A DNA stretch of 23,088 bases, from IMG/VR virus record IMGVR_UViG_2563366797_000001; one strand, written 5' to 3'. Both the position numbers and the translations under genes were made by a program. Origin of the DNA: a virus (taxonomy: Duplodnaviria; Heunggongvirae; Uroviricota; Caudoviricetes). Each line of letters begins with the position of its first letter. The first letter of the stretch is position 1. Shown in pieces: positions 422 through 20,709 of the stretch. The notes under the pieces were generated by a model. The model was not told the origin of the DNA. It searched no databases and saw nothing but the letters and a program-made list of their open reading frames with translations.

Positions 422-426
422 AATAA

Positions 427-443
427 TAAATTAATTAGTGCAT
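427..443 (-). promoter_or_regulatory. Degenerate C1 operator-like site (GCACTAAT core)
   Basis: Minus-strand reading ATGCACTAATTAATTTA; close to the Op99a-type variant at 18095-18111 but with about 3 mismatches to the ATTGCTCTAATAAATTT consensus. Confidence 0.3.
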
Positions 444-487
444 ATGTGCTCTTTGATATAGCGCACATTAACATCGGGAGAATAATC

Positions 488-643
488 GTGTCATTCAAGG
501 CTAATTATGAATCGCTGGCATCGATCATGCCGCGTAATGAACAGGAAGCAGATGCTGTAGTGGACCCGGTAATCGCTGAAATGAATGCTCGCCTGGAGGC
601 TGAATTTGCAGCTGAGAATGAACATACCACCCAGGGCGACTAG
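488..643 (+). CDS. Small hypothetical protein (GTG start)
   Basis: GTG at 488 preceded by GGGAG; about 51 aa in the frame of ORF 446..643. No recognisable motif. Confidence 0.2.
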   Translation: MSFKANYESLASIMPRNEQEADAVVDPVIAEMNARLEAEFAAENEHTTQGD

Positions 644-1247
644 GACTGTTTTTTGTGTCGGTAGCGGTCCGTCACTCACTCGTGAGGACTGTGCTGCTAT
701 AGAAAAAACTGGCTGTTCAATCATCGCGGTTAACAATTCCTGGCAGATGTTCGATGACATTTATGCCTTATACGCCGGTGATTTGTCATGGTGGAAGCAA
801 TACGGATCCACCATACCGGGAGGGAGATTCCGCAAAGTGACAGCCAACCTGGCGGCGGCGAAATCATTTTCGTTGGAGTACAGGCGATATTGTGGACCGG
901 CGGAAGGGGTAAATAGCGGCGCGCAGGCTATCAGTCTGGCTGCTGAATCAGGGGCTGAAGTAGTGGTATTAGTCGGCTATGACTGTTCTCTGCAAAACGG
1001 CCTTCATTGGCATGGCGCGCACCCTCAAGCCCTACGGAATCCAACGCAGGTGTCTATTTCAAAATGGCAACAGCAGTTCCTGGATACCCGCAAAAAACAC
1101 GCAGATTTACATATTTTGAATGCAAGTAGGAGCAGTGCAATTCAATGTTTCCCAAGAATAAATTTAGAGGCAGTGATCGCGTTATTATCGTCGGCAGTGG
1201 CCCAAGCGCCGCAAACTTTGTTGCGCCGCGCGGAGTGCCGATTATAG
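618..1247 (+). CDS. Sialyltransferase/Maf-like (GT42/DUF115-like) putative glycosyltransferase, paralog 1
   Basis: VFCVGSGPSL...IIAVNNS...NSGAQAISLAAESGAEVVVLVGYDCS...HWHG, matching the recalled Cst-II/Maf pattern (GNGPSL loop, second strand, SG...A...LG...L.G.D, catalytic His region). Start could be 585 or 618. Confidence 0.5.
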   Translation: MNIPPRATRTVFCVGSGPSLTREDCAAIEKTGCSIIAVNNSWQMFDDIYALYAGDLSWWKQYGSTIPGGRFRKVTANLAAAKSFSLEYRRYCGPAEGVNSGAQAISLAAESGAEVVVLVGYDCSLQNGLHWHGAHPQALRNPTQVSISKWQQQFLDTRKKHADLHILNASRSSAIQCFPRINLEAVIALLSSAVAQAPQTLLRRAECRL

Positions 1248-1771
1248 CGGTCAATGGGGCCATCGACTGGCTTAACCGCGCTTCTTATTTTTTCACCCTT
1301 GATCCATCGCCAGACAATATGCGGCGCGTTGGTCGTGGCCGCCGTCGCCGTGGTGTTTGTTATTGCATGGCACTACCCGATGTTAAAGAACGTGAAGTCA
1401 GAGATGGCGTTCTGTGCTTCCGTCGTGTGGCTGAGCGCGGCACGGAGCCAAAAAATACGAATTCTCCCGAGTGGTGGGCGTGGCGCTGGTCCGCACATTT
1501 CGGCCTTTGCGAAGATGAGAATGAAATTGCCAGCGGCAATAGTGCATATGGTGCTCTGAACCTGGCTTTCCATATCGGATTCAAACATGTCGCCCTGGTG
1601 GGCGTTGACGCTACACAAGAACCACGCGTTCACTCCGGCGGCACGCCAAAAAATCTAAGTCACCTGCCTTTGTTATTCCAGTCTGCGCGTGAACAGATTG
1701 ACGTTGTTTCATGCGGGAAAATGGGAGGTATTCCGCAGATGACTCTTAAAGAATGGCTGAAGAATACATGA
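1145..1771 (+). CDS. Sialyltransferase/Maf-like (GT42/DUF115-like) putative glycosyltransferase, paralog 2
   Basis: [13 protein letters not shown]...IIAVNGA...[28 protein letters not shown]...VHSGGTPKN; same motif order as paralog 1. AGGAG lies upstream of the ATG; overlaps the paralog 1 tail by about 100 nt. Confidence 0.5.
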
Positions 1772-2445
1772 TGGCACCCACAATTTATCACCGTATCGAC
1801 GGTACCAAATACAGGAATGTCTGGGTTGTTGGTGATCTGCATGGTTGCTACACCAGACTGATGTCCGAACTCCATCGTGTGGATTTTGACCCGGCGCAGG
1901 ATTTACTGATATCGGTCGGCGACCTTATCGATCGCGGTACTGAAAATGTCGAATGTCTGGAACTATTGCAGATGCCCTGGTTCAGGGCAGTGATGGGGAA
2001 CCATGAGCGGCTGATGATTGATGCGTTAAGTCCAGATGGCAACGTGAATAACTGGCTAATGAATGGCGGTCAATGGTTCTTCATGCTGGACGCTGATCAG
2101 GAAATATTAGCCAGGGCGCTGGTGGAGTTGGTAAGACGACTGCCCTATATCATTGAGTTGAACACCGGGCAAGAAACTATCGTTATAGCCCATGCCGACT
2201 ATCCGGATAATGAATATCAATTCGGTAAGGAGGTGCCGCTTTTCAACGTTGTCTGGGCGCGCGAGCGTATCAGTGATTCGATGGATGATATTGGTGGCGA
2301 AATTTCTGGCGCAGATCGTTTTATCTTTGGTCACACTCCGGTGAAAAGCCCGAAGACATTCTGGAATCAGCATTATATCGACACAGGTGCCGTATTTTGC
2401 GGAAACCTGACATTGATGAAAGTGAAAGGTGATGGTGCAGCATGA
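1768..2445 (+). CDS. Ser/Thr protein phosphatase, lambda PPase / PrpA-PrpB family (metallophosphoesterase)
   Basis: Near full-length match to recalled lambda phosphatase: [44 protein letters not shown] at 1768 overlaps the upstream stop (ATGA); 1753 is an alternative start. Confidence 0.85.
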
Positions 2446-3143
2446 AGATTGCTTTAGTTCTTCGCTCTGGTGGTGACTATAACGCTTCCGATGTGCAGTG
2501 GCTGGTTAATCAACTGCCAAAAGGCTATGAAATTATTTGCCTGACAGACCTGAAGCGTTTACATGTACCTGGCGTCAAAGTTGTCCCATTGATCAACCAG
2601 TGGCAAAAGTGCCGTGGCTGGTGGGCGAAAATCGAGTTGTTCCGACCGGATATAACCGATGATCTGTTCTATCTGGATTTGGACACGGTTATTGCCGGTG
2701 ATATACGCCCAATCCTAGAGAATCCACCAACCAGCTTCACCATGCTTAGGGATTTTTACCATCCACAATATCGTGGCAGCGGTGCCCTGTGGATACCAAA
2801 TAGTGTAAAAGCGCATATCTGGAGTGCATTCTGGCAAGATCCGGAAGGTTGGATTGCTCGTTGTGTTACTACTGAATGCTGGGGTGAGCAGGGGTTTTTG
2901 CGGAAGGTTATGGGTGATGATACACCAGCATTTCAGGATCTGTATCCGGGATGGTTTGTAAGTTACAAGGCCGATGTTGTGGAACCTGGTTCGAAATATG
3001 CGAGCGCGCGTTACTCCAGGGGGAATGGGGCATTACCAAAAGACTGCCGAATAATCTTTTTCCACGGCAAACCGCGACCTCGCGAAGTGTCAGAGGATTG
3101 GCTTCCCCTTATCAGCTCATTTTTTGAGCGAGAATCAGAATAA
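2442..3143 (+). CDS. GT-A fold (GT8-like) nucleotide-sugar glycosyltransferase
   Basis: N-terminal strand [12 protein letters not shown], DxD-type motif [14 protein letters not shown]-terminal FFHGKPRP resembling the GT8 H.G..KPW motif. ATGA start-stop overlap with the phosphatase gene. Confidence 0.5.
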
Positions 3144-3144
3144 T

Positions 3145-3161
3145 ATTGCTCTAATAATTCC
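3145..3161 (+). promoter_or_regulatory. C1 operator-like site
   Basis: ATTGCTCTAATAATTCC, two bases after the glycosyltransferase stop codon. Confidence 0.55.
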
Positions 3162-3169
3162 ATATTTTT

Positions 3170-3199
3170 AAAACGTGATGTACACTCATCACGTTTTTT
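3170..3199 (+). terminator. Intrinsic terminator hairpin (bidirectional-looking) between two inverted operator sites
   Basis: AAAACGTGATG-TACACT-CATCACGTTTT followed by T-run; preceded by T/A run on the other side. Confidence 0.55.
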
Positions 3200-3210
3200 A
3201 TTAGAGCAAT
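3194..3210 (-). promoter_or_regulatory. C1 operator-like site (inverted relative to 3145-3161)
   Basis: Minus-strand reading ATTGCTCTAATAAAAAA. Confidence 0.55.
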
Positions 3211-3224
3211 CTATAAGGTGCACT

Positions 3225-3443
3225 ATGTGGCCATTCCGACGGAAATATCACTACTGGCTGATCGCCTTTGTTACGCCGACCGGCGGTATCAGGCATGTCA
3301 TCACCAGGTATCGCAACAAGAGACTCACCTTAGCCAGAATTTTACAGGCTGCCATAGGTGAGGGACTGGATACAAATTGCGTAGTCCTTCCACCTTCATA
3401 CTTAGGAAAAATGACCGAAGCACAAGCTAATACGGAACTTTGA
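3225..3443 (+). CDS. Hypothetical protein (72 aa)
   Basis: ATG with AAGGTG about 7 nt upstream, directly after the operator site. No recognisable motif. Confidence 0.3.
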   Translation: MWPFRRKYHYWLIAFVTPTGGIRHVITRYRNKRLTLARILQAAIGEGLDTNCVVLPPSYLGKMTEAQANTEL

Positions 3444-3602
3444 AATGAGCACTTCAGCACAAAACCAATCAATCGAAAATGTATCTAGAGGAAACTGCGG
3501 CAAGAAGACTTCTCGATGTTTGCTATGCACGTAGCGATGCATGGGAAAAAGAGAACGGCGGCACTATTTACGTTCGCTGATAGTTACAGTGTCACTTTTA
3601 AT

Positions 3603-3633: not shown

Positions 3634-3652
3634 CGTCCAATGAGGAGGGCAT

Positions 3653-4159
3653 TTGAGTATTTTCAATAAACACGCACACCAGGAACGTCCGTACATCGTC
3701 ATAGTAGATATTGATGGGACGATATCAGAGGCAACGGAAGACAGGCTGCATTTACTTCCACCACCTGGCAAAGGTGCATTAACAGAGCACTGGAACGAGT
3801 TTAACCTTGCCTGTGACACTGATGCTCCCATCACTCCAGTTATTGATATGGTGCGCCAGTTGTCCGGCATTTACACCCTCTGGTTTGTAACCGGGCGCTG
3901 TGAGATAGCCAGGGATAAAACACGAGCCTGGTTGCGTAAGCACGTAACAAATGGGGCTGAGCCTTTGCTATCTATGCGTCCTGCCACCGATGACAGAAAT
4001 GACGGTCCAGCAAAGATTGATCTCCTGAAGAAAATTGGTCTAAGTAAAATTGCGTTCGCGCTGGAAGATAAGATTGAAGTGGCGCGTGTTTTCAGGAGTC
4101 ACGGCGTACTTACGTTAATGGTCAGGGAGTATGAAAACGCGCTTCTCCATCAACAATAA
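3653..4159 (+). CDS. HAD-superfamily phosphatase-like protein
   Basis: TTG start with strong GAGGAGGG Shine-Dalgarno. HAD motif I VIVDIDGTI (DxDGT), motif II LWFVTGR, acidic motif FALEDK. Confidence 0.5.
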   Translation: MSIFNKHAHQERPYIVIVDIDGTISEATEDRLHLLPPPGKGALTEHWNEFNLACDTDAPITPVIDMVRQLSGIYTLWFVTGRCEIARDKTRAWLRKHVTNGAEPLLSMRPATDDRNDGPAKIDLLKKIGLSKIAFALEDKIEVARVFRSHGVLTLMVREYENALLHQQ

Positions 4160-4175
4160 TTGCTCTAATAAATCT
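4159..4175 (+). promoter_or_regulatory. C1 operator site with promoter-like TTGATT immediately downstream
   Basis: ATTGCTCTAATAAATCT followed by CTTGATTTTT; the same operator-TTGATTTTT arrangement recurs at 18642. Confidence 0.6.
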
Positions 4176-4257: not shown

Positions 4258-4344
4258 ATGAACACGGCATTCAAAATCATTATGGCCGCGATCTATTTCT
4301 GGCTGTTCTCTATCACTTTTGGCAGCATTGTCGCGCATGGGTAA
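4258..4344 (+). CDS. Small hydrophobic peptide (28 aa), possible membrane peptide or toxin-like
   Basis: MNTAFKIIMAAIYFWLFSITFGSIVAHG; AGGAG 8 nt upstream; downstream of the 4159 operator and a hairpin (4210-4231). Too short for the ORF track. Confidence 0.3.
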   Translation: MNTAFKIIMAAIYFWLFSITFGSIVAHG

Positions 4345-4423: not shown

Positions 4424-7400
4424 CTATATTTTTCCGCCTACGCCTTTAAACTTCTCAATAAACGAGACGATTTTCTGGAAAACTGCCTGTTTTTTCGTTT
4501 TATATTGCGGATTCAACGGACTAAGTTTTGGTAATGTTTCGTTTAATTCTGTGCCATTTTCGGTGGCGTATTCGCGTTTTAAAGACGTGCGAATATAGCG
4601 TTTTGCTGCATCTTCATTGAGATTTTCTTCTTTTATCAATGCTTCTGCTTCACGTTGCTGTTCGCGTTGAGCAAACGTAAAGAATGCCTCAATGATACTG
4701 GCTTTGTCTGGTAAATCATCCAGGTTCGTTTGCTGAATAAAATCGACCACCAGGCCCTCTTTCGCCCGGTTCCCCAGGCTTGAACGAATTAAGCGTTTGA
4801 CCTCTTCGATCATTTCGCCCTTGCCTTTATTTTGTCTATTGTGTTCGAAAATCAGTCCAAGGATATAATCCAGGTTTATTTCCTGAGACTTCAGCAAATC
4901 GACCTCAAAAACTACGTCATCCCAGTCAGTGGTTGATTTCTCTTTTTTCTCAGCTTCTTTCTCACGGCGCTGCCAGTCGCGAATATCGTTATAGGCAGAA
5001 CGATAATCCTGAATCTTGCGATCAGCAGGGAGACGAATTGTTTGCAATTCAGCGAACTTTTCATTATCCACATAATGTTCTGCTTTGAATTTTTCTACCG
5101 CAACAGGATCGCTAAGATCGATTTGTTGCAGGGCTTTTAGCGTGGCAAATTCATCATAGTTTTGCAGGATGTTCTCGGCACGCAGGTATTCGCCAAACAG
5201 TTTAACGAAGTCTTTCTTCTCTTTTTCACTTTCAATACTGGTAGGGTCAGGGAACCGTTGTTCCAGTTCTGAAACTACTGTCATGAAGCCGCGTTTAGCT
5301 TCACCAGTGGCAGCATCAGTAAAGCCTTCCATATACTCTGCATAACTCTTTTCTAAAACCACATTTTTGGTATTTTTGTCACCAAACAGCGTTATGGCAT
5401 CAATGGTTGAGCGTTCCAGATCCCGGAACGTGACAATATTACCGAAGGTTTTAGTCGCGTCATAAATGCGGTTGGTGCGGGAGAATGCCTGCATCAGGCC
5501 GTGAAAACGCAAGTTTTTATCGACGAATAGCGTGTTTAATGTTGGAGCATCGAAGCCGGTTAAAAACATCCCCACGACAATTAGCAGATCGATATCCTGA
5601 TTTTTAACCCGCTGGGCTAAATCACGATAGTAGTTCTGAAAACCGTTACTGTCGGTGCTAAAGTTAGTTTTAAAATGGCTGTTATATTCACGAATTGCAG
5701 CGTCCAGAAACTCTTTAGCACTGCTGTCCATTGCGCTGGTATCAAAAGTTTCATCGGAAATTTCACCAATGGCATTTTGTTCTTCATTGGCGGCAAAGGA
5801 GAAGATTGTCGCAATACGCAGCGGTTTATAGGTAGCCGATTTATTAGCGGCTTCTTCTTGTAACCGTTTAAACGTCGCATAATAGGCTTTCGCGGCATCC
5901 ACGCTGCTCACTGCCAACATAGCATTAAAACCTTTTGAGCCAGGGAAGGTACGGTGGGTTTTCTGGCGGAAATTATTCAGAATATATTGCGTGATTTCCT
6001 GAATACGCATGGGATGAAGAAACGCCTGCTGATTTTCAGCCGCACTCAGTTTTTTCTCGTCAGTTTCTGTCTCTAAAGACTTAAACTGTGGCCGCACATC
6101 GTTGTAGTCCACCTTGAATTTGAGCACTTTTTCGTCACGAATCGCATCGGTAATTACATACGAATGCAATTCACGACCAAATACGCTGGCGGTTGTTTCT
6201 GAGCCTAAGGCGTTTTCCGGGAAAATAGGGGTGCCGGTAAAACCAAACTGATAATAGCGTTTGAATTTCTTCTTCAGGTTTTTCTGCGCTTCTCCAAACT
6301 GGCTGCGGTGGCATTCATCAAATATAAACACCACTTGCTGATTATATACAGGCAGATCGCTTTCTGCTTTCATCAGGTTATTGAGTTTCTGAATAGTAGT
6401 GACGATAATTTTGTTATCGTCCTTATCCAGATTTCGTTTAAGACCTGCGGTATTTTCCGAGCCGTTGACGCTGTCTGGCGAAAAACGCTGATATTCCTTC
6501 ATGGTCTGGTAATCGAGGTCTTTCCTGTCGACCACAAAGAAGACTTTATCAATAAAGTCCAGCTCTGTTGCCAGACGCGCGGCTTTAAAGCTGGTGAGGG
6601 TTTTACCAGAACCGGTAGTGTGCCAGATATACCCACCGCTTTCCGGTTTTGACCAGTTCTTCGCTGTAAAGGAACTCTTAATTTTCCACAGAATGCGCTC
6701 GGTGGCGGCAATCTGGTACGGTCGCATTACCAGTAGTGTCTGACTGCTGTCAAAAACGCTGTAGTTCACCAGAACATTAAGCAGAGTATGTTTCTGGAAA
6801 AAGGTAGCGGTAAAGTCTTTGAGGTCTTTAATCAGTGTATTGTCTGATTTAGCCCAGTTCATGGTGAAGTCAAAACTGTTTTTATCGCGCTTTGTGGTGT
6901 TGGCAAAATAACGGGTATCAGTGCCGTTGGAAATGACGAACAGCTGCAGATACTTAAACAGGGAATTTTCGCTGTTAAAACTCTCTTTACTGTAACGATG
7001 TATCTGGTTGAAAGCCTCACGAATCGCCACCCCGCGTTTTTTTAGTTCGATTTGCACCAGCGGTAAACCATTAACCAGGATCGTGACGTCATAACGGTTA
7101 GCATGAGAACCCGTCTGTTCAAACTGCTGGATAATCTGCACCTTATTGCGCATGAGATTCTTTTTATCTATCAAATAGATGTTCTCAAGACGCTCGTCAT
7201 CAAAAATAAAGTCGCAAATATAGTCGATATGGATTTTACGGGTCTTATCCAGAATGCCATCGCTCGGGTTATCCAGATACTGCTCCGTGAAACGCCGCCA
7301 CTCGCTGTCATTAAACACCACACCATTGAGGTTCTGAAGCTGTTCCCGAACATTGGCTAGCATCGCCGACTGTGATTTTACGGATATAAATTCATAGCCC

Positions 7401-7540
7401 TGATTCCGCAGGTCCTGAATCAGTTCACGTTCCAGGTCCGATTCGCTCTGGTAGCTGTCGCCTGTTTGCTCAGCTTTGATGTACTTATCAAGGACGATAA
7501 AGTTATTGGATTCAGCAATGGTGTGTGTTTGATGAGTCAT
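4424..7540 (-). CDS. hsdR: Type I restriction enzyme R subunit (HsdR)
   Basis: 1038 aa; Walker [18 protein letters not shown]-box-like [11 protein letters not shown], helicase motifs; last gene of the M-S-R operon. Confidence 0.95.
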
Positions 7541-7661
7541 AGCGCATCCTTTGTGCCGTCTGGCAAGGGCCGGAAGGGAGTTAAGGGCGACTTCCGGCGT
7601 GTAGAAAATAGTCTATATACTGACCGGATGTTAAGGTGGTCCGGTCTGTAAAAATGCTCAA

Positions 7662-8288
7662 TTAATTACTGGCTGTTTCAGGTTTTGGGAAACTGAACAG
7701 TAAATCACGATAGTACTCGTATTGTTTCTGGCGCAACTCGATTTCACGCGGGAGACCTTCGGTGATGGAGTTGGTCAGTGTGTCGAATTTGTCCAGAATT
7801 CGCACGATTTCAGACTGGATGGCAAGGGATTTTTCCGGATTATCCGGGCAGGGGATTGGGATTTTTTTTTGAGAATAATTACTAATCCATTGGCGTTTAT
7901 GGTCTCCCTCTGCGAATTCACTTGGTAATGTATTGAGCCAATAGTAAACATATTTCAGTAAGGTTTTATTATCATCACATGATGTAACCATTTTCATGGC
8001 CGATGATTTTGCCTTAAAGTCAAAATCCACCCATTTATTAGCGGTGGTGAAATCATCAAAAATTATTACAGGTGCCTTTGATGCCTGATAAATACCATGA
8101 GTCTCATTTGTGTATCCAAGAATAAATGTTTTTCCGGCAGTAAGAACCGGTATGGTATATGTGTCGTGATAATCTTTTGCTTTTACCAAATACTTTGTTG
8201 GCTGTTCATATTTGGTTATTTCCCCCAATGGCAACCACTCAACTTCAACCCCATCCAGCAATTTTTCCAGATAACTCATCTCGCTCAT
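7662..8288 (-). CDS. hsdS: Type I specificity subunit (HsdS), short single-TRD form
   Basis: 208 aa; start overlaps the hsdM stop by 4 nt (coupling); position between hsdM and hsdR; length is consistent with one target-recognition domain plus a conserved region. Confidence 0.8.
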
Positions 8289-9847
8289 TTCTGCACCTCG
8301 CAGCCTTCAATTTCAGCCACAATCGCATCAATATCTTTGCGCAACTGGTCGATTTTGCTGACCGTGGTTTTCAGCTCAGCATTCAGCTCACCGATATCGA
8401 TAATTTCGCGAGTATCTTTCGCTTCAACATAACTGCTCACCGACAGGTTATAGTCATTCGCGACAACAGTCTCAAACGCAACAGATTTCGCCAGATGGGC
8501 AACATCTTCCTTGCCGGCAAATACCTGCATAATCTGTTCGATATGGGCATCGGTCAGGATATTGTTGTTAGTCTCTTTTTTGAACAATTCGCTGGCATCA
8601 ATAAACTGAACTTTGGTATCCGTTTTATGTTTAGACAGCACCAGAATATTGACGGCAATGGTGGTGCCAAAGAACAGGTTCGGTGCCAGTGAAATCACGG
8701 TTTCGACATAGTTATTGTCGACCAGATATTGACGGATTTTCTGCTCTGCGCCGCCACGGTAAAAAATACCCGGGAAGCAGACAATCGCAGCACGACCTTT
8801 GGCCGAAAGATAGTTCAGCGCATGTAGTACAAACGCAAAGTCAGCTTTGGATTTGGGGGCCAGGACGCCAGCCGGGGCAAAACGTTCATCGTTAATCAGC
8901 GTCGGGTCATCGCTGCCAATCCATTTCACCGAATACGGCGGGTTAGAAACGATGGCATCAAACGGTTTTTCATCTCTGAAGTGTGGCTCAGTCAGTGTAT
9001 TACCCAGCTTGATATCAAACTTGTCGTAGTTGATGTTGTGCAAAAACATGTTCATACGTGCCAGGTTATAGGTTGTATGGTTGATTTCCTGACCAAAAAA
9101 GCCTTCTTCGATGATATGGTTATCAAACTGCTTTTTAGCCTGCAACAACAGTGAGCCGGAACCCGCTGCCGGGTCGTAGATTTTGTTAACGTTGGTCTGC
9201 CCGTGCATAGCCAGTTGTGCAATCAGCTTGGAGACGTGCTGCGGTGTAAAGAACTCACCGCCTGACTTACCGGCATTTGCCGCATAGTTAGAAATCAGGA
9301 ACTCATAGGCATCACCGAACAGGTCAATCTGATGTTCGTTGAAGTCACCAAGTTTTAACCCTTCAACCCCTTTCAGAACCGCAGCCAGGCGGGCATTTTT
9401 ATCTTTAACGGTGTTACCCAGGCGGTTACTGGTGGTATCGAAATCAGCAAACAAACCTTTGATGTCTGCTTCTGAAGGGTAGCCGTAAGCAGAACTTTCG
9501 ATAGCAACGAAGATGCTGTTTAAATCTGCGTTCAGTCTGTCATTGGTATTTGCTTTCGCAGCTACGTTGCAGAAAAGCTGACTTGGGTAGATGAAGTAGC
9601 CTTTGGTTTTGATGGCATCGTCTTTAATGTCATCAGTAATTACGCTGTCATCCAGTTTCGCATAACAGATGCTGTCATCACCGGCTTCAATATAGCTGGA
9701 AAAATTTTCGCTGATAAAACGGTAGAAAAGCGCGCCCAGAACGTATTGCTTAAAATCCCATCCATCGACCGAACCTCTGACATCGTTAGCAATTTGCCAG
9801 ATTTGACGATGAAGCTCTGCACGTTGTTGAATACTTGTCATTTTCAT
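8285..9847 (-). CDS. hsdM: Type I N6-adenine DNA methyltransferase (HsdM)
   Basis: 520 aa; NPPY motif ([11 protein letters not shown]), AdoMet-binding region ([10 protein letters not shown]), typical HsdM N-terminus. Confidence 0.95.
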
Positions 9848-9986
9848 CCACTTATTTCAGGCTTATGTAATTGGCGGTGATTCTACAGCAACTTGGATGC
9901 TTTAGCAGTTCGGACATTAGGCTACGAATGACCTGCCTAGAGGTTTGTTAAGCCGCAAAGTGCTGGTGCTTTATGTCTGTGAAGTT

Positions 9987-10017
9987 TATAATTGTGTACA
10001 CATAACGAGTACACGAG
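9987..10017 (+). promoter_or_regulatory. phd-doc promoter/operator region
   Basis: TATAAT at 9987-9992 followed by perfect palindrome TGTGTACACA (9993-10002) and GAGTACACGAG directly upstream of the phd ATG. Confidence 0.55.
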
Positions 10018-10023
10018 GTATTT

Positions 10024-11880: not shown

Positions 11881-11881
11881 A

Positions 11882-11898
11882 ATTGCTCTAATGTATTG
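11882..11898 (+). promoter_or_regulatory. C1 operator site upstream of the lpa-position gene
   Basis: ATTGCTCTAATGTATTG, directly after the stop of the preceding gene. Confidence 0.6.
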
Positions 11899-11968: not shown

Positions 11969-12283
11969 ATGTTACTTAACTGGCAGGGACGCCACTTCAT
12001 GGAAATAAATCACTCACGAATAACATCGTACGAGATTGCGAATTACATGATCCGCACTAAATCTCTTCTATCAGCGAAAGAACTCGCAGCAATTCTTGAA
12101 AAGGAATACCCGCATCTGGATGTCGATAAGCGCGATGTTTATCTGCGCTTAAAAGCTATCGCTGTGTCTAAGTATTCGTCTGTTTTGATTGATGACAGTA
12201 CGAACGAAAGCGTGAAAATAACTGGTCAGTGCTGGAAGCAGCTGAATTCATCGAGGCGCATGGCGGGAAAGTGCCGCCCCTGA
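11969..12283 (+). CDS. Possible late-promoter-activator (Lpa-position) protein
   Basis: 104-aa ORF downstream of a C1 operator; assignment by position only. Confidence 0.3.
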
Positions 12284-12989: not shown

Positions 12990-13000
12990 TGGATTTGCCC

Positions 13001-13906
13001 CTATATTTCCAGACACCTGTTATCACTTAACCCATTACTGGCTTGCTGCCGTAGATATTCCCGTGGCGAGCGATAACCCAGTGCACTATGCGGATGCCAT
13101 TCGTTATAATGCTCGAACGCCTCTGCAAGGTTCTTTGCTGCCGTTAACCCGTCTGGTTTGGGCATGACACTGATGTAGTCACGCTTTATCGTTTTCACGA
13201 AGCTCTCTGCTATGCCGTTACTCTCCGGACTCCGCACCGCCGTGCTCTTCGGTTCAAGCCCCAACATCCGGGCAAACTGCCGTGTTTCATTAGCCCGGTA
13301 GCATGAACCATTATCCGTCAGCCACTCTACTGGAGACGCCGGAAGCTCGTTGCCGAAGCGGCGTTCCACCGCTCCCAGCATGACGTCCTGTACTGTTTCA
13401 CTGTTGAAGCCGCCCGTAGTGACCGCCCAGTGCAGTGCCTCACGGTCACAGCAGTCCAGCGCGAACGTGACTCGCAGTTTTTCTCCGTTATCACAGCGGA
13501 ACTCGAACCCGTCAGAGCACCATCGCTGATTACTTTCTTTCACAGCCACTCTGCCTGTATGTGCCCGTTTCGATGGCGGTACAGCAGGTTTTCGCTCAAG
13601 CAACAGCGCATTCTGGCGCATGATCCGGTAAACACGTTTGGCATTGATCGCAGGCATACCATCAAGTTCTGCCTGTCTGCGAAGCAGCGCCCATACCCGA
13701 CGATAACCATACGTGGGCAGCTCTCCGATAACATGGTGTATACGGAGAAGCACATCCGTATCATCAGTGTGACGACTGCGGCGGCCATCCATCCAGTCAT
13801 CGGTTCGTCTGAGAATGACGTGCAACTGCGCACGCGACACCCGGAGACAACGGCTGACTAAGCTTACTCCCCATCCCCGGGCAATAAGGGCGCGTGCGCT
13901 ATCCAC
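13001..13906 (-). CDS. insD: IS2 transposase OrfB (InsD)
   Basis: 301 aa, DDE integrase-type sequence (...WCSDGFEF...LTDNGSCY...). Confidence 0.9.
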
Positions 13907-14229
13907 TTTTTTGCCCGTCCATATTCAACGGCTTCTTTGAGGAGTTCATTTTCCATCGTTTTCTTGCCGAGCAGGCGCTGGAGTTCTTTAATCTGCTTCA
14001 TGGCGGCAGCAAGTTCAGAGGCAGGAACAACCTGTTCTCCGGCGGCGACAGCAGTAAGACTTCCTTCCTGGTATTGCTTACGCCAGAGAAATAACTGGCT
14101 GGCTGCTACACCATGTTGCCGGGCAACGAGGGAGACCGTCATCCCCGGTTCAAAACTCTGCTGAACAATTGCGATCTTTTCCTGTGTGGTACGCCGTCTG
14201 CGTTTCTCCGGTCCTAAGACATCAATCAT
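13864..14229 (-). CDS. insC: IS2 OrfA (InsC)
   Basis: [41 protein letters not shown]...; helix-turn-helix N-terminus; start taken at MIDVL (121 aa). Confidence 0.9.
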
Positions 14230-14320
14230 CTGCTCTCCAATGACTAGTCTAAAAACTAGTATTAAGACTATCACTTAAATAAGTGATACTGGTTGTCTGG
14301 AGATTCAGGGGGCCAGTCTA

Positions 14321-14325: not shown

Positions 14326-15420
14326 AAAGGTGTATGGACTGTAGTACCGAAGGGCTTTCGTCTGGGAAGTGAAGAAGTTCTCGCCGGTGAACACGCAGAT
14401 CATCTTCTGTATATTATCGATGAAGCCTCCGGTGTCAGTGATAGAGCTTTCGGTATCATCACCGGTGCTCTTACCGGACAGGATAACCGCATCTTATTAC
14501 TGTCACAGCCTACACGCCCAAGCGGCTATTTCTACGATACTCACCATAAACTGGCCAAGCGTCCTGGTAACCCAGATGGCGTTTATACGGCGATCACGCT
14601 TAACAGTGAGGAATCACCGCTGGTAACGTCAGAATTTATCAAAATGAAGCTGGCGGAGTACGGCGGGCGTGATAACCCTATGTACATGATTAAGGTACGC
14701 GGCCTATTCCCTAAATTACAGGACGGCTTCCTTCTTGGACGTGATGAGGTTGAACGTGCGACGCGGCGGAAAGTCAAGATTGCCAAAGGATGGGGCTGGC
14801 TTGCATGTGTGGACGTTGCTGGTGGTACAGGACGGGATAAGTCCTTTATCAATATCATGATGGTGTCCGGCCAGCGAAATAAACGCCGTGTAATCAACTA
14901 TCGAATGCTGGAATACACAGACGTTACAGAAACGCAGCTTGCCGCCAAAATTTTCGCAGAATGTAATCCTGAGCGATTCCCCAATATCACCATAGCGATA
15001 GACGGCGATGGCCTGGGTAAAGCAACGGCGGATCTGATGTACGAGTATTATGGTATTACCGTACAGCGTATACGCTGGGGTAAAAAGATGCATAGCCGTG
15101 AAGATAAGAGCCTGTACTTTGATAAACGTGCTTATGCCAACGTTCAAGCCGCAGAGGCCGTAAAATCTGGTCGTATGAGACTGGATAAGGGTAATGAAAC
15201 TATTGAGGAAGCGTCGAAAATCCCTGTAGGGATTAACTCCGCAGGTCAATGGAAGGTGATGAGTAAGGAGGATATGAAGAAAAAACTCAACCTGCACTCA
15301 CCAGACCATTGGGATACATATTGTTTCGCTATGCTGGCGGATTATGTTCCCCAGGACGAAGTGCTTAGCGTCGAAGACGAAGCGCAGGTTGATGAAGCTC
15401 TGGCATGGCTTAATGAATAA
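14326..15420 (+). pseudogene. pacB: pacB (terminase large subunit), C-terminal part
   Basis: 365 codons in frame with the N-terminal fragment once IS2 and one duplication copy are removed; reconstructed length about 495 aa. Confidence 0.8.
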
Positions 15421-15423
15421 ACA

Positions 15424-15440
15424 CTTGCTCTAATAAATTG
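15424..15440 (+). promoter_or_regulatory. C1 operator-like site heading the antirepressor module
   Basis: CTTGCTCTAATAAATTG, followed by TTGACT and a possible -10. Confidence 0.55.
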
Positions 15441-15572
15441 TGTTTTTTGACTGCCGATGTTACATTGAACCTGACCTCTTGCGCCTTGAGGCATTTTCGG
15501 TTTATGCTTATCAGGCACCTCATTAAAACGGGTGCCGGGATTGAGACCCCGGATAATGTCAAAGGCGACACA

Positions 15573-15594
15573 GACGCCGAAAGCGTCTTTTTTT
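15573..15594 (+). terminator. Intrinsic terminator-like hairpin inside the antirepressor leader
   Basis: GACGC-CGAAA-GCGTC followed by T7; flanked by complementary GACACA/TGTGTC. Confidence 0.5.
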
Positions 15595-15779
15595 GTGTCA
15601 TGCCATCGCACAGCCATACGTAGCGTTTAGCTCCGAAATCAATGGTAGTGCTGGCTGGGCTGCCGAAAGGCAGGCCGGTTCCCTTTGACGCCGGTAGTCT
15701 CAACCCAGTCAGTGCTACCGCCATTGAGATTGAGACCTCACGCGGTAGCTCCTTAACTTAGTCAAAGGAGGCTGCCATT

Positions 15780-16001
15780 ATGGCTACTGTCCCTACCCCA
15801 ATTCATCCTGAATTTATCTGGCGCTTTTACTCCTGCCAAAAACGTCACTATCACTTCGTTATTGCACCGACAGAAGATGAGGCCCATTCTCAGCTTCCTG
15901 ACGCCCCATGTATTTTCTCTGCCCGTTTTTCCACTGATTCACGCAATTCTCTCAGTTACTGGTGCCTCCCTGTTAACGCTTCTGCTCAGGAGGGACTATG
16001 A
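15780..16001 (+). CDS. Small protein translationally coupled to the antirepressor gene (Icd-like position)
   Basis: 73 aa; strong AAGGAGG Shine-Dalgarno; stop overlaps the downstream ATG (ATGA). Confidence 0.4.
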   Translation: MATVPTPIHPEFIWRFYSCQKRHYHFVIAPTEDEAHSQLPDAPCIFSARFSTDSRNSLSYWCLPVNASAQEGL

Positions 16002-17116
16002 GAACGTCATTAGTTACCCGTGAAGAGATGATCGAGGCAATTGAACAGCACACTGCCTGTATCAGTACTAGGGATATACCGGGCGTTATTGCCAACTACT
16101 TCATGATCACCAAACAACTTTACCGGAGAAAGGACAAGAACGCAGTTCACCGCATCCTGCTGTCTGATATCCGCGAATACCTGCTCGAACAGGGGCATCT
16201 GAATTACGCAACCGCCGCAGCCGAATCACGCAAGGAGGCACACAGAATGAAAGCAACTAACGTTAAATCAGAAAAAATTCATGCACCTTCAGTTCAGGAA
16301 TCGGAGCTGGTGGTTGTTCAGAATCAGTCTGATGAAATTCCCGTTCTGGAATGGCAGGGAGTGCGTGTAGTGACAACCGAGACTCTTGCTAGAGGGTATG
16401 GGACAGAAACAATCCGTATTCGCCAAAATCATCATGAGAACAAAGTACGCTTTGTTGAAGGGAAGCACTTTTTCAAAGTTGAAGGAGAATCATTGCGCGA
16501 GTTGAAGCACAGAGTAGCTTTAAACTACTCTGTAAAAATTGCTCGCAATGTTCGCTCACTCACCCTCTGGACAGAACGCGGCGCAGCCCGCCACGCTAAA
16601 ATGCTCGAAACCGATCAGGCATGGGCATTCTTTGAAAAACTGGAAGACAGCTACTTCCGACAAAAAGAACAGCAACCGATCGCAATCCCCCAGACGCTTC
16701 CTGAAGCCCTACGCCTGGCTGCCGAACTGGCTGAACAAAAGCAACTTCTGGAACAGAAAGCCCACCAGCTAAATCAGCAGCTGGTGGCCGCCGCTCCTAA
16801 AGTCGATTTTGCCGACCGGGTATCAGTAGCTAAAGGGATCCTGATTGGGAATTTTGCAAAGGTTGTTGGACTTAAGCAAAACGCGCTGTTTGTCTGGTTA
16901 CGGGAGAACGGCATCCTGATAGCGTCCGGTGGACGTAAAAATGTGCCGTTCCAGCAGTACATCAACGCGGGGTATTTCACGGTGAAAGAAGTGGTGCTGG
17001 ATGATGAAGATGGCTACCAGATACGGTTGACGCCTCAATTAACGGGTAAAGGCCAGCAGTGGTTGACGCGTAAACTGCTCGATGCTGGCTTGTTAAAACC
17101 GGTGGCGGCTGAATAA
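15998..17116 (+). CDS. Antirepressor-like protein (N-terminal ORF6N domain, C-terminal KilAC/Ant domain)
   Basis: 372 aa; N-terminal ...WQGVRVVTTETLARGYGTETIRIRQNHHENKVRFVEGKHFF... (ORF6N pattern), C-terminal ...FVWLRENGILI...YINAGYF... (Ant C-terminal pattern); convergent with c1. Confidence 0.7.
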   Translation: MRTSLVTREEMIEAIEQHTACISTRDIPGVIANYFMITKQLYRRKDKNAVHRILLSDIREYLLEQGHLNYATAAAESRKEAHRMKATNVKSEKIHAPSVQESELVVVQNQSDEIPVLEWQGVRVVTTETLARGYGTETIRIRQNHHENKVRFVEGKHFFKVEGESLRELKHRVALNYSVKIARNVRSLTLWTERGAARHAKMLETDQAWAFFEKLEDSYFRQKEQQPIAIPQTLPEALRLAAELAEQKQLLEQKAHQLNQQLVAAAPKVDFADRVSVAKGILIGNFAKVVGLKQNALFVWLRENGILIASGGRKNVPFQQYINAGYFTVKEVVLDDEDGYQIRLTPQLTGKGQQWLTRKLLDAGLLKPVAAE

Positions 17117-17148: not shown

Positions 17149-18000
17149 TTATTGCGCGCTTTCGGGGTTGTCGTTTACTGGCTGCCCCTTCTTGGTTTTA
17201 CGGCTGCGCGTAACTGATGCGGCTGACTTAACCTTTTTCTCTTCGCGAGTGATGGCAATTTGTTTTTTTACATTTTCAATATCTGCCAGGCGATATATTT
17301 TTGCTTGCGGCCAGCGGTCGCAGATGATCGGTTCTATGGAGTCATAAAGGCTAAATTTTGCTTTTTCGAATTCACCGTTGATGATAATTCCATCACGGAG
17401 AGTTTCATCGCAGATAAACACGCCACACAGTGGCACATGGTAACTAACTGATTTACCATCATTGTAGTTAGGGCTACTGGAAATGTAGTGGACGCGCAGC
17501 ATTGTTTCGCTAAAGCCGTGTACGCGCATACGGAATTTTTCATCCTCCGGGTACTGCTTCATTAGCTCTTTTGTTGCTTCCAGGTTCTCTATGTATTTCG
17601 CACTGTGCTCATTGATCCCCGCGCTTTTTTGGATGCGAATGTCCTTATCAATCAGATGAATAATGCGGCCAGCGGTCATGTTGACGCTGTTCACAGCTTC
17701 TGTCTGATAAGTTGTAACCTTACGCACACCGCGAAGGATGTTAGGCACTGGATATAAAATAGTCTTTGGGATATTGAGGTCTGGGTACTGTTCCAGTTCC
17801 CGCGCCATTAAAGTCCATTTATCAATTTCAGCCTGAATGCTGTCAGTTTCTTTGAACGGTAGAACGACAACCGGGCGTACAGGACGACCGTCGCTGGCTG
17901 TATCAACGTGTTGGGCGCGTGCAACAGCTTTTTTTAGAAAGAGATCCCTGAAGCTGACGAACTCCTGGTACAGTTGTTCGCCGTAGACATAATTTATCAT
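17149..18000 (-). CDS. c1: C1 repressor of lysis (primary immunity repressor)
   Basis: 283 aa, MINYVYGEQLYQEFVSFRDLFLKKAVARAQHV..., matches recalled P1 C1; GGAGGAGG Shine-Dalgarno. Confidence 0.95.
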   Translation of the reverse strand: MINYVYGEQLYQEFVSFRDLFLKKAVARAQHVDTASDGRPVRPVVVLPFKETDSIQAEIDKWTLMARELEQYPDLNIPKTILYPVPNILRGVRKVTTYQTEAVNSVNMTAGRIIHLIDKDIRIQKSAGINEHSAKYIENLEATKELMKQYPEDEKFRMRVHGFSETMLRVHYISSSPNYNDGKSVSYHVPLCGVFICDETLRDGIIINGEFEKAKFSLYDSIEPIICDRWPQAKIYRLADIENVKKQIAITREEKKVKSAASVTRSRKTKKGQPVNDNPESAQ

Positions 18001-18094
18001 TGATCCTCCTCCAGAATTGACATGGTCAATAACGCCCGGCTGAGAAAACCGGTCATTACTGACCTATATTATAGAGGGATCAAACAAAAATAAT

Positions 18095-18111
18095 AGATTT
18101 ATTAGTGCATT
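18095..18111 (-). promoter_or_regulatory. C1 autoregulatory operator (Op99a-type)
   Basis: Minus-strand AATGCACTAATAAATCT between coi and c1. Confidence 0.6.
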
Positions 18112-18320
18112 TATTGTGAGTCTAACTGGTTAGTTGCCATGAGATATTCGATTGTGTCAGTGAGGTCATCCAGGTCGTCTTGGGTGATGCGGTACTCCTG
18201 ATTGGATATCTTTGAGTAGTGTTCAGCAATGGCGCGGGCAGCGTCGGTTTCGGCAGGGTCTACAGATAAAGCGTTAGAGCAATGTCTAACGTCGTCGATG
18301 GTTGGTTGAATGAAAGCCAT
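18111..18320 (-). CDS. coi: Coi, C1 inactivator
   Basis: 69-aa acidic protein immediately upstream of c1 on the same strand, as in P1 immC. Confidence 0.85.
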   Translation of the reverse strand: MAFIQPTIDDVRHCSNALSVDPAETDAARAIAEHYSKISNQEYRITQDDLDDLTDTIEYLMATNQLDSQ

Positions 18321-18558
18321 AATTATGTCTCACTGTATTGACAACACAGAGCCTGAAGCTCTGACCTACTGTTTCACCCATGATCCATGCTGGGGTAATC
18401 TAACAACATTGCGCTGTGTGTAAGATGAGCAATGCATAGCTGTAATGCCGTTGTATAAGGTTTCCCTGTTTGCTCATTTCCTTCTGAGCCGCTCTACAAC
18501 GCTGAAGACACATTAAATAGTGAATCCAAAGTCGTATTACGAAACGGCGGCAAAACTA

Positions 18559-18575
18559 TAATTTATTAGAGCAAT
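18559..18575 (-). promoter_or_regulatory. C1 operator site (immC upstream region)
   Basis: Minus-strand ATTGCTCTAATAAATTA. Confidence 0.6.
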
Positions 18576-18641
18576 TGTCAAACAACTATGAAAAACAATC
18601 CAGTTTTTAGCTGGTGGAGTGGGATTTTTCTCTCAAAATTT

Positions 18642-18658
18642 ATTGCTCTAATAATTCT
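18642..18658 (+). promoter_or_regulatory. C1 operator site with adjacent TTGATT promoter element
   Basis: ATTGCTCTAATAATTCT followed by TGATTTTTGTG. Confidence 0.6.
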
Positions 18659-18701
18659 TGATTTTTGTGCGCAGCTGGACGTAAACTCCTCTTCTGACCT
18701 G

Positions 18702-18735
18702 ATAACTTCGTATAGCATACATTATACGAAGTTAT
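18702..18735. other. loxP: loxP site-specific recombination site
   Basis: Exact ATAACTTCGTATA-GCATACAT-TATACGAAGTTAT (13-bp inverted repeats around an 8-bp spacer). Confidence 0.98.
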
Positions 18736-18754
18736 CTTAAGGGTTATTGAACAT

Positions 18755-18827
18755 GATCAATTCACCTGTAAATCCATACAGTTCAATACCTTATCAGGTC
18801 AAATAGTGATCACTTGATCATTTGATC
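18755..18827. promoter_or_regulatory. Cluster of four GATC (Dam) sites upstream of cre
   Basis: GATC at 18755, 18808, 18816 and 18824, three of them as TGATCA-type repeats within 20 bp. Confidence 0.55.
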
Positions 18828-19153
18828 AAGGTTGCGCTACGTAAAATCTGCGAAATGTTGGCAGTGTTAGTACTCCAGATTTCGCGTAGCGCACTTAGCA
18901 CCACCAATCAATCAGAGGTGAAAAATGGGATATTCAGCTGCTAAAGTGTCCACTCATCTTGAGCTTGAGAAAAACCGTGGTTACTGGCGGGCAAAAGGGT
19001 TTGATCGTGATAGTTGCCAACTGTCATTATCGCGCGGTGAAGAGAAAATAGAACGCACGCGCGGTCGCTGGCGTTTCTATGACGAGAACCATAAACAGGT
19101 AAAGGCAGAGCCGATCCTGTACACTTTACTTAAAACCATTATCTGAGTGTTAA

Positions 19154-20185
19154 ATGTCCAATTTACTGACCGTACACCAAAATTTGCCTGCATTACCGGT
19201 CGATGCAACGAGTGATGAGGTTCGCAAGAACCTGATGGACATGTTCAGGGATCGCCAGGCGTTTTCTGAGCATACCTGGAAAATGCTTCTGTCCGTTTGC
19301 CGGTCGTGGGCGGCATGGTGCAAGTTGAATAACCGGAAATGGTTTCCCGCAGAACCTGAAGATGTTCGCGATTATCTTCTATATCTTCAGGCGCGCGGTC
19401 TGGCAGTAAAAACTATCCAGCAACATTTGGGCCAGCTAAACATGCTTCATCGTCGGTCCGGGCTGCCGCGACCAAGTGATAGCAATGCTGTTTCACTGGT
19501 TATGCGGCGGATCCGAAAAGAAAACGTTGATGCCGGTGAACGTGCAAAACAGGCACTAGCGTTCGAACGCACTGATTTCGACCAGGTTCGTTCACTCATG
19601 GAAAATAGCGATCGCTGCCAGGATATACGTAATCTGGCATTTCTGGGGATTGCTTATAACACCCTGTTACGTATAGCCGAAATTGCCAGGATCAGGGTTA
19701 AAGATATCTCACGTACTGACGGTGGGAGAATGTTAATCCATATTGGCAGAACGAAAACGCTGGTTAGCACCGCAGGTGTAGAGAAGGCACTTAGCCTGGG
19801 GGTAACTAAACTGGTCGAGCGATGGATTTCTGTCTCTGGTGTGGCTGATGATCCGAATAACTACCTGTTTTGCCGGGTCAGAAAAAATGGTGTTGCCTCG
19901 CCATCACCCACCAGCCAGCTATCAACTCGCGCCCTAGAAGGGATTTTTGAAGCAACTCACCGATTGATTTACGGGGCTAAGGATGACTCTGGACAGAGGT
20001 ACCTGGCCTGGTCTGGACACAGTGCCCGTGTCGGAGCCGCGCGAGATATGGCCCGTGCCGGAGTTTCAATACCGGAGATCATGCAAGCTGGTGGCTGGAC
20101 CAACGTAAATATTGTCATGAACTATATCCGTAACCTGGATAGTGAAACAGGGGCAATGGTGCGCCTGCTGGAAGATGGCAATTAG
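19154..20185 (+). CDS. cre: Cre tyrosine recombinase
   Basis: 343 aa, MSNLLTVHQNLPALPVDATSDEVRKNLMDMFRDRQAFSEHTWKMLLSVCRSW..., matches recalled P1 Cre; sits about 420 bp from loxP. Confidence 0.97.
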   Translation: MSNLLTVHQNLPALPVDATSDEVRKNLMDMFRDRQAFSEHTWKMLLSVCRSWAAWCKLNNRKWFPAEPEDVRDYLLYLQARGLAVKTIQQHLGQLNMLHRRSGLPRPSDSNAVSLVMRRIRKENVDAGERAKQALAFERTDFDQVRSLMENSDRCQDIRNLAFLGIAYNTLLRIAEIARIRVKDISRTDGGRMLIHIGRTKTLVSTAGVEKALSLGVTKLVERWISVSGVADDPNNYLFCRVRKNGVASPSPTSQLSTRALEGIFEATHRLIYGAKDDSGQRYLAWSGHSARVGAARDMARAGVSIPEIMQAGGWTNVNIVMNYIRNLDSETGAMVRLLEDGN

Positions 20186-20202
20186 CCATTAACGCGTAAA
20201 TG

Positions 20203-20219
20203 ATTGCTCTAATTCTTTG
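20203..20219 (+). promoter_or_regulatory. C1 operator-like site downstream of cre
   Basis: ATTGCTCTAATTCTTTG. Confidence 0.5.
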
Positions 20220-20235
20220 ATATTTATGGTGGCAT

Positions 20236-20547
20236 ATGAGAAAGGATTTCAACATCGACGGAAAATATGTAGTGCTGTCTGTAAGCACTAATATTCTGTC
20301 GCCATCTGTCATTGTCACCGTAAAGTTGAGCGATAGGATGCCTGATATCGACTCGATATCTGTTGCGTTCCCCGTTAAAAGCATGCGGAGTGCTGAACAT
20401 TTTGTGATGAATGCAACGGAGGAGGAAGCGCGGCGCGGGCTTACTAGAGTGATGGGGGAATTTGGCGAACTCCTGGGTAAGGTAAACAATGCCCTTTCAA
20501 TCAGTTCAGCAAGGTCCAAAGCGTTAACAGCTTCCATGATGAAATAA
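20236..20547 (+). CDS. Hypothetical protein (103 aa) downstream of an operator
   Basis: ATG with GGTGG upstream; stop immediately precedes an A-tract and hairpin. Confidence 0.4.
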   Translation: MRKDFNIDGKYVVLSVSTNILSPSVIVTVKLSDRMPDIDSISVAFPVKSMRSAEHFVMNATEEEARRGLTRVMGEFGELLGKVNNALSISSARSKALTASMMK

Positions 20548-20572
20548 AAAAAAGCCTGGCAAGGAGCCAGGC
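20546..20572 (-). terminator. Rho-independent terminator oriented for minus-strand transcripts
   Basis: On the minus strand GCCTGGC-TCCTT-GCCAGGC followed by T8; plus-strand side lacks a T-tract. Confidence 0.5.
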
Positions 20573-20679
20573 TGCACAAAAGAGCGGGTTTGTATTCCGC
20601 ATCCAATCAATCAAGAAGGAGTATAGCACACAGGTACTGAAGTGAAAAAATGTGATTCGCGAGAAACAAAATATCTACC

Positions 20680-20709
20680 ATTGCTCTAATTGATTGCTAT
20701 AATTTAGCC
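20680..20709 (+). promoter_or_regulatory. Tandem overlapping C1 operators (Op2-type) with embedded TATAAT; ref promoter
   Basis: ATTGCTCTAATTGATTG overlapping ATTGCTATAATTTAGCC; perfect TATAAT at 20698-20703. Confidence 0.65.

Follow-up and report, generated by a model that had tools for sequence, protein, structure and literature searches.

Putative C1 operators of a probable P1-type plasmid prophage, one of them ahead of a second immI-type antirepressor cassette

The C1 repressor of phage P1 binds 22 dispersed operators with the consensus ATTGCTCTAATAAATTT (PMC8546580). This operator network (Op2a/b, 21, 51, 53, 55, 68, 72a/b, 82, 83, 86a/b, 88, 94, 99a-e) has been on the map of P1 for decades and forms part of its GenBank annotation. 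One operator, Op51, belongs to immI, which in P1 and P7 lies between sim and kilA-repL and has the order Op51-P51a/P51b-a1/b1-c4-a2/b2-icd-ant1/ant2. A comparable arrangement is the isrK-orf45-anrP locus of Gifsy-1 in Salmonella (PMC4825925), in which a leader small RNA of the isrK family and its terminator precede a small open reading frame (ORF) translationally coupled to an antirepressor gene. Here we describe the C1 operators of a 23,088-nucleotide stretch of viral DNA (IMG/VR record IMGVR_UViG_2563366797_000001), referred to in its entirety as the window. Twelve of these operators are known already from P1. The additions to the P1 annotation are a site at 15424, which has good support and stands at the head of a putative second immI-type cassette between pacB and c1, and a site at 20203, ahead of c8, which is a plausible candidate.

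The window is very probably a segment of a decayed P1-type (IncY-like) plasmid prophage. In megablast comparisons with phage and plasmid collections, it was 95-98% identical to P1, P7, RCS47 and SJ46 across collinear blocks. An IncY plasmid of E. coli H15 matched with 99% identity across 96% of the window. Our high confidence applies to the whole explanation developed below, which joins the nature of the element, its C1 operators, the immI cassette, the c8 candidate, cargo outside the regulon, and broken targets. The cognate C1 repressor is encoded by the same element as the operators: c1 (17149-18000, minus strand) is intact, and its product is identical to P1 C1.100 at 281 of 283 residues.

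We searched both strands for operators with position weight matrices (PWMs). For training, we used the 20 C1 operators listed for P1 in GenBank (AF234172/AF234173), after correcting the strand of Omat from the sequence. One matrix was built from all 20 operators. The other was restricted to the 8 operators from parts of P1 without homology in the window, which makes it independent of the tested sites. Where two bit values are given for a site, they are written x/y, as scored for that site. With the independent 8-operator matrix, 12 sites in the window scored at least 14 bits, compared to an expectation of 0.20 (300 dinucleotide-preserving shuffles) or 0.197 (exact calculation for independent, identically distributed bases). 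Allowing up to 3 mismatches to the asymmetric 17-mer consensus, we found 9 matches (0.07 expected). With the 20-operator matrix, thirteen window sites scored 14.6-26.7 bits, and the annotated P1 operators themselves range from 5.6 to 28.1 bits. The chance expectation at 14.6 bits is at most 0.13 per window. A preliminary description of the window had listed operator-like 17-mers at twelve positions. Eleven of these were strong matches (18.8-26.7 bits with the 20-operator matrix) and one, at 20693-20709, scored at background.

Site-by-site comparison showed that twelve sites are collinear with the P1 operators Op83, 86a, 86b, 88, 94, 99a, 99b, 99c, 99d, 99e, 2a and 2b. They have the same 17-mer, the same repressor, and the same neighboring promoters and genes as in P1. 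Ten are identical to their P1 counterparts at 17/17 positions, and Op83 and Oc1b at 16/17. The flanks are identical at 78-97 of 97 bases, indicating that the annotated promoters of P1 were largely carried over with the operators. Overlap or abutment of the twelve sites with sigma-70 promoters is assigned by identity with those promoters. This part of the operator set is a correct rediscovery of the long-mapped P1 network.

The first of the twelve, Oppp (Op83; TATGCACTAATTAATTT; 19.5/20.6 bits), lies upstream of pmgN-pmgO-pmgP-ppp-pmgQ on the minus strand. It had been placed at 427; the operator is real and its true coordinates are 428-444. OpmgRa (Op86a; 3145-3161, plus strand; flanks identical at 97/97 bases) overlaps PpmgR and is followed by OpmgRb (Op86b; 3194-3210, minus strand), OpmgT (Op88; 4159-4175, plus strand; 26.7 bits) and Olpa (Op94; 11882-11898, plus strand). 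The bivalent c1 operator (18084-18111) consists of the weak Oc1b (18084-18100, plus strand) and Oc1a (Op99a; 18095-18111, minus strand). Oc1c (Op99c; 18267-18283, minus strand; 14.6 bits) is inside coi, Oc1d (Op99d; 18559-18575, minus strand) overlaps P1coi, and Oc1e (Op99e; 18642-18658, plus strand) adjoins P4cre. Oref (Op2a; 20680-20696, plus strand) overlaps P2ref, and the target of Omat (Op2b; 21346-21362, plus strand), mat, is split. The sites said earlier to mark known targets (c1, ref and the position of lpa) correspond to the P1 Op99 set, Op2a and Op94. Three P1-annotated operators had been overlooked: Op99c, Op2b and the weak Oc1b.

The site at 20680-20696 had been described as one member of a tandem pair extending to 20709. 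The second member, 20693-20709 (plus strand), is a partial repeat, ATTGCTATAAT within ATTGCTATAATTTAGCC, that scored 8.6 bits, and ~2.3-2.6 such matches are expected per window by chance. P1 annotates the -10 hexamer of promoter P2ref at the matching position. The background score and the P2ref -10 assigned to this sequence rule it out as an operator, leaving one operator at this locus rather than two. Four other PWM matches, at 417, 4034, 5837 and 7653 (6.6-10.8 bits), were also rejected, as they fall inside the shuffle background and have no P1 annotation. Downstream of both ref promoters, directly before the ref start, there is a GC-rich hairpin followed by T8 (20764-20789, plus strand), identical in P1; this part of the ref leader resembles an intrinsic terminator or attenuator.

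By analogy with P1, these 17-bp motifs would bind the C1 of the element itself, which is 99% identical to P1 C1. Bound on or beside sigma-70 promoters, C1 would keep the early lytic operons off, and removal of C1 activity by Coi (67/69 residues identical to P1 Coi) or by Ant would release them. That lytic derepression switches on the C1-controlled genes is textbook P1 biology.

P1 has no sequence corresponding to the 15424 locus. In P1, the pacB stop codon is followed within ~25 bp by the convergent c1 stop codon; in the window, a 1.7-kb cassette fills the gap between these stop codons. Judged by its parts, the insertion is a complete immI-type unit, a second copy besides the type at the canonical immI locus. 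All of its features are on the plus strand. The cassette begins with the 17-mer CTTGCTCTAATAAATTG (15424-15440; 22.8/19.0 bits), which starts 4 nt past the pacB stop, matches the consensus at 15/17 positions (0.0006 such sites expected by chance) and aligns with P1 Op51. Its distance to a1 is 117 nt, compared to 115 nt in P1. This site is quite probably a genuine C1 operator, equivalent to Op51 (Oc4). It precedes icd-ant, in agreement with the earlier statement that an operator stands ahead of the antirepressor module. Two predicted promoters follow. One is P51a-like (TTGTGT-17-TACATT; 15438-15466), aligns with P1 P2c4/P51a, and has a -35 that overlaps the last 3 nt of the operator. The other is P51b-like (TTGCGC-18-TATGCT; 15479-15508), aligns with P1 P51b, and ends 7 nt before the Rfam match of the leader.

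The leader is a predicted isrK-family RNA (15515-15593; Rfam RF01394, 60.2 bits) with an intrinsic terminator (15572-15588 plus a T run) found by a terminator scan. The P1 immI leader also matches RF01394, and in addition RF03163. The C4 antisense RNA gene (15638-15725) matches Rfam RF01695 over its full length with 75.4 bits (gathering score 45; E 2.4e-13). Complementarity to the C4 loops b' (15682-15689) and a' (15697-15703) identifies putative target sites on either side of this gene: a1 (TTGAGAC, 15541-15547) and b1 (GTCAAAGG, 15558-15565) in the leader, and a2 (15730-15736) and b2 (15761-15768) ahead of icd, with b2 overlapping the icd Shine-Dalgarno sequence. Loop a' at 15697 pairs with a1 at 15541 and a2 at 15730, and loop b' at 15682 pairs with b1 at 15558 and b2 at 15761. 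The icd homologue (15780-16001; 73 aa; phrog_1426) is 80% identical to P1 Icd and shares a 4-nt ATGA overlap with ant. The antirepressor gene (15998-17116; 372 aa; phrog_63) encodes a protein 56% identical to P1 Ant1, with Pfam ANT and ORF6N domains. The N- and C-terminal parts of this Ant are like those of P1 Ant1, its center is the ORF6N domain, and its Met84 aligns with the start of P1 Ant2.

The order and spacing of the parts are the same as in immI of P1 and P7. The two also share the position of the operator over the -35 of the first promoter (predicted, in the window), a C4 RNA of the same Rfam family, the placement of b2 on the icd ribosome-binding site (RBS), and the ATGA overlap of icd and ant. 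Unlike immI, the window cassette sits between pacB and c1, as a displaced additional copy. The recognition sequences also differ. In the window, a is TTGAGAC and b is GTCAAAGG; in P1, a is TTGACAG and b is GTTAGTG. Compared to Gifsy-1, the window cassette likewise has an isrK-family leader with a terminator and a small ORF coupled to an antirepressor. Unlike Gifsy-1, it has a C4 RNA gene between the leader and the small ORF, icd as that small ORF, and a P1 C1 operator at the promoter. We suggest that the cassette copies the Op51-c4-icd-ant logic of P1 with different antisense recognition sequences. C1 would act on the P51a-like promoter, and the P51b-like promoter would be constitutive. The a1 and b1 sites in the leader would serve as decoys for C4 RNA, a2 and b2 would cover the icd RBS, and icd would be translationally coupled to ant.

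In another difference from P1 immI, the leader and the central ORF6N part of Ant resemble ant modules of Stx/lambdoid phages. From the leader through C4 to the central ORF6N part of ant (15516-16666), DNA identity to the ant regions in numerous Stx-converting lambdoid phages is ~71%. P1-specific sequence makes up the operator-promoter segment (15400-15515) and the termini of Ant. The cassette thus looks like a mosaic of P1 and lambdoid parts. In the RefSeq/PGAP annotation of the closest plasmid, NZ_CP010179.1, a coding sequence (CDS) for a 39-aa 'ash family protein' (100859-100978; approximately 15642-15761 of the window) lies over the C4 RNA gene. This CDS is probably an RNA gene mis-called as protein-coding.

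We compared the cassette in 65 copies, comprising 60 loci from a scan of viral contigs with a downstream anchor, the window, and phage records. It lies directly after pacB in all 65. The operator reads [TC]TTGCTCTAAT[AG]AATTG in 64 of them, and no other block from pacB to the promoter is as well conserved. Substitutions and indels occur in the bases between the pacB stop and the operator, and again past the T run. An alternative is that neither 15424 nor 20203 is an operator, the former being a passenger of the cassette end and the latter a promoter-type element related to a -10. We consider this rather improbable. For 15424, the 15/17 match to the consensus, its low chance expectation, the Op51-like distance to a1, and the conservation across the 65 copies all argue against a passenger. 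The operator of the pacB-c1 cassette is a site of a known kind (Op51-like) with good comparative support.

The antisense recognition sequences, unlike the fixed operator, vary among the copies. There are at least three types of a (TTGAGAC, TTGGAAC and TTGGCCT) and three of b (GTCAAAGG, GCAAAAGG and GTCTAAGG). The change is concerted: the C4 loop, the site in the leader, and the site proximal to icd covary three ways across alleles. This three-way covariation is strong comparative evidence that the cassette works as predicted. One copy, in which a1 differs in type from a' and a2, is apparently recombinant. RCS47 has both a canonical immI (with P7-type recognition sequences) and the pacB-c1 cassette, and each of the two has an operator. 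In PLSDB, 213 plasmids contain 80% or more of the leader. The insertion of 'two short hypothetical orfs' and ant between pacB and c1 has been mentioned in one line (PMC6906374), and a second c4-icd region has been mentioned for a D6-like plasmid (PMC6799933). In the full-text literature covered, which did not include the P1 genome paper or the D6/plasmid-prophage paper, we found only these one-line mentions of the ant insertion and of a second c4-icd region.

The second addition, ATTGCTCTAATTCTTTG (20203-20219, plus strand), scored 18.8/15.9 bits (0.011 expected per window). It begins 17 nt past the cre stop and ends 16 nt ahead of the c8 start. The corresponding sequence of P1 and P7 is ATTGCTATAATTATTTG, in which C7 is changed to A, and no operator is annotated there. 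In the cre-c8 intergenic regions of 40 relatives, the ATTGCTCTAAT core was intact in 32; seven had the P1/P7 form and one had another change. The core was kept where the 5' flank is unrelated (CCGTCAATGCATAGGAA or CCGTCAATGTACAATAA in place of CCATTAACGCGTAAATG). The P1/P7 form is a perfect extended -10, TGCTATAAT, the same motif as the P2ref -10. We propose tentatively, and with somewhat less than even confidence, that 20203-20219 is a C1 operator. Most natural relatives would then retain it unchanged, and P1 and P7 would have the mutated form TGCTATAAT (C7 to A).

For 20203, several points favor the alternative of a promoter-type element. The likeness of this site to an operator could be attributed to the shared TGCT(C/A)TAAT motif, and the 3' half of the site (TCTTTG) is off consensus. 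The extended -10 in P1 and P7, and the use of the same motif by P2ref, fit the same alternative. Standing against it, the majority form (32/40), which is found across unrelated 5' flanks, has a C at position 7 that breaks the -10 (TCTAAT). The operator core TGCTCTAAT is one C-to-A step from the extended -10 TGCTATAAT (window 20203-20213 and 20693-20703; P1 1485-1495 and 1975-1985). By this comparison, operators may turn into -10 elements, and -10 elements into operators, within the family.

Several points weigh against our interpretation of these two sites and of the regulon. A consensus promoter scan around 15424 reported no promoter, and the P51a-like and P51b-like promoters are weak by consensus, so their assignment rests on alignment to the annotated promoters of P1. 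A similar scan around 20203 revealed no promoter downstream; repression there would have to act as a roadblock. We tried to dismiss the c8-site variant of P1 as a dead site by PWM score, but this failed: the matrix gave the P1/P7 variant 18.3 bits and the window form 18.8 bits and cannot separate the two by binding, because the training set contains Oc1b, which has A at position 7. The conserved core of the c8 site could be kept as a promoter element instead. More generally, the backbone is 95-99% identical to P1, and conservation of the twelve P1 operators within a single element says little about current selection. All our functional statements about this element are carried over from P1.

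Taking both sites together, we think it possible, though we hold this with reserve and give it slightly less weight than its negation, that laboratory P1 and P7 are unlike the majority of natural P1-type phage-plasmids. Many of the latter would have a second C1-gated antirepressor cassette, and the c8 operator would be intact. This estimate refers to the joint reading, that is, a cassette with diversifying antisense specificity and a fixed operator, plus a c8 operator that became an extended -10 in P1 and P7.

We determined the gene order of the window from the P1 and RCS47 annotations, ORF calls and domain calls. It begins with a partial pmgM', pmgN-pmgO-pmgP-ppp-pmgQ, pmgR, a pmgS remnant, pap and a 28-aa ORF. 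These are followed by type IC hsdR-hsdS-hsdM on the minus strand, phd-doc, pdcA-pdcB, and a shortened lpa that runs into the 3' end of pacA. The last part contains pacB split by an insertion sequence (IS), the icd-ant module, c1, coi, the lox region, cra, cre, c8, ref, a split mat and part of IS5.

The preliminary description had also proposed that the repressor regulon includes cargo genes, naming a small hydrophobic ORF and a glycosyltransferase/phosphatase block, and that such accessory functions are switched on with lytic derepression. An operator set that extends C1 control to accessory or cargo genes, turning them on at induction, is very unlikely. Operators do precede ppp, pap, the hydrophobic ORF and the ant module. 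These genes, however, are P1 backbone behind operators already annotated in P1. Op88 is directly ahead of the small hydrophobic ORF, as described, but this ORF is not cargo. It encodes 28 aa (MNTAFKIIMAAIYFWLFSITFGSIVAHG; 4258-4344, plus strand), has an AGGAG RBS, is the first frame behind Op88, and is identical in P1 and RCS47 at 27/28 residues. The ORF is unannotated in the P1 record (AF234173, ~84073-84159), and the junction of the hsd cassette lies a few bases past its stop. Similarly, Op83 and Op86a/b do lie ahead of a block containing phosphatase genes, P1 ppp (Metallophos) and pap (HAD/PNKP-type), within pmgN-pmgO-pmgP-ppp-pmgQ and pmgR-pap, but this block too is backbone. No glycosyltransferase domain in the pmg block passed the threshold. 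PmgO and PmgP had only sub-threshold MptE-like matches, and we dropped that label. The switching on of these functions with derepression is textbook P1 biology for backbone genes and is partly moot here, where lpa, pmgS and mat are broken.

The only clear cargo in the window is a type IC hsd cassette (4424-9847, minus strand) and the IS elements. The cassette, identified by Pfam, consists of hsdR (4424-7540), a half-size hsdS (7662-8288) and hsdM (8285-9847). It lies between the Op88 region and phd and replaces pmgT-humD of P1. Unlike in P1, Op88 here faces an inverted hsd cassette, which converges on the Op88 promoter. That this promoter now points into the cassette is a further point in favor of cargo control, but the hsd genes are on the opposite strand. 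We read and PWM-scanned the hsd promoter regions (7541-7661 and 9848-10023) and found nothing above background. The best match near them was 7653-7669, with 8.2/10.8 bits; chance alone would give 1.7 sites at 10 bits or above. These comparisons place the restriction cassette and the IS elements outside the C1 regulon as predicted from sequence; the antirepressor cassette is itself regulatory.

The P1 record flags flanks that are 96-98% identical to the type IC hsd loci EcoDXXI and EcoR124, and the junctions of the window cassette coincide with these stretches. Unlike the HsdS of those systems, the window HsdS has 208 aa and only one target-recognition domain. Similar to it are the truncated HsdS proteins EcoR124I(delta50) and EcoDXXI(deltaC), which form homodimers that act on palindromic targets (PMC3874165). 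The window hsdS has no CDS entry in the gene table of the closest plasmid.

Unlike in the P1 network, several of the controlled genes are broken in the window. The truncated lpa (11969-12283, plus strand) retains 78 of the 150 Lpa codons, with one substitution relative to P1, followed by a frameshifted tail. A 1.1-kb deletion (junction 12199-12201) joins lpa to the 3' end of pacA; pacA has lost two thirds of its length, and the late promoter LPpac and the pac site are gone. pacB is split by an IS2-like element of the IS3 family (13000-14290), pmgS is reduced to a 29-codon remnant by an internal deletion (3445-3534), and the region 21517-23088 contains a split mat and, from about 22043 on, IS5. 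In NZ_CP010179.1, pacB is also split by an IS3-family element, which indicates that at least the pacB lesion is no assembly artefact. Damage to lpa, pacA/pac, pacB, pmgS and mat means that several operators guard broken targets and that the regulon is partly vestigial. From the genes present, derepression could express ppp, pap, the small ORF, icd-ant, ref and perhaps c8, and could not activate the late genes, package DNA or yield phage.

These lesions raise the possibility that all of the operators are relics, inherited motifs without a current regulatory role, and that the regulon is a fossil of that of P1. The high identity of the backbone fits this view, since at such identity operators would be retained even without selection. 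We nonetheless regard it as unlikely. c1, coi, icd, ant, C4, cre, c8 and ref are intact, and the operator of the second immI cassette is conserved against variable flanks in relatives. In addition, it is established P1 biology that plasmids of this type normally depend on C1 for the silencing of kilA and repL, two genes outside the window. From the intact c1, coi, C4, icd and ant, we infer that the regulon is still in use.

The claim that C1 controls cargo genes does not hold, and the added value of the analysis is modest: the pacB-c1 insertion is recognized as a second immI switch, one gated by an operator and diversified in its antisense specificity. For annotation, what had been an 'ant insertion' between pacB and c1 becomes a full immI-type switch with its own predicted C1 operator and C4 RNA. 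The window is also a caution that an intact-looking regulon can sit on an element no longer able to make phage. The immI-type cassette occurs in hundreds of Escherichia and Salmonella plasmids, and it could affect the inducibility and cross-immunity of P1-like phage-plasmids, which are spreaders of resistance genes. If both additional sites bind C1, then the C1 regulon drawn from laboratory P1 is incomplete. In the wild, P1-like elements would have a lysis-lysogeny switch with a double antirepressor lock, which could set cross-immunity groups among co-resident phage-plasmids.

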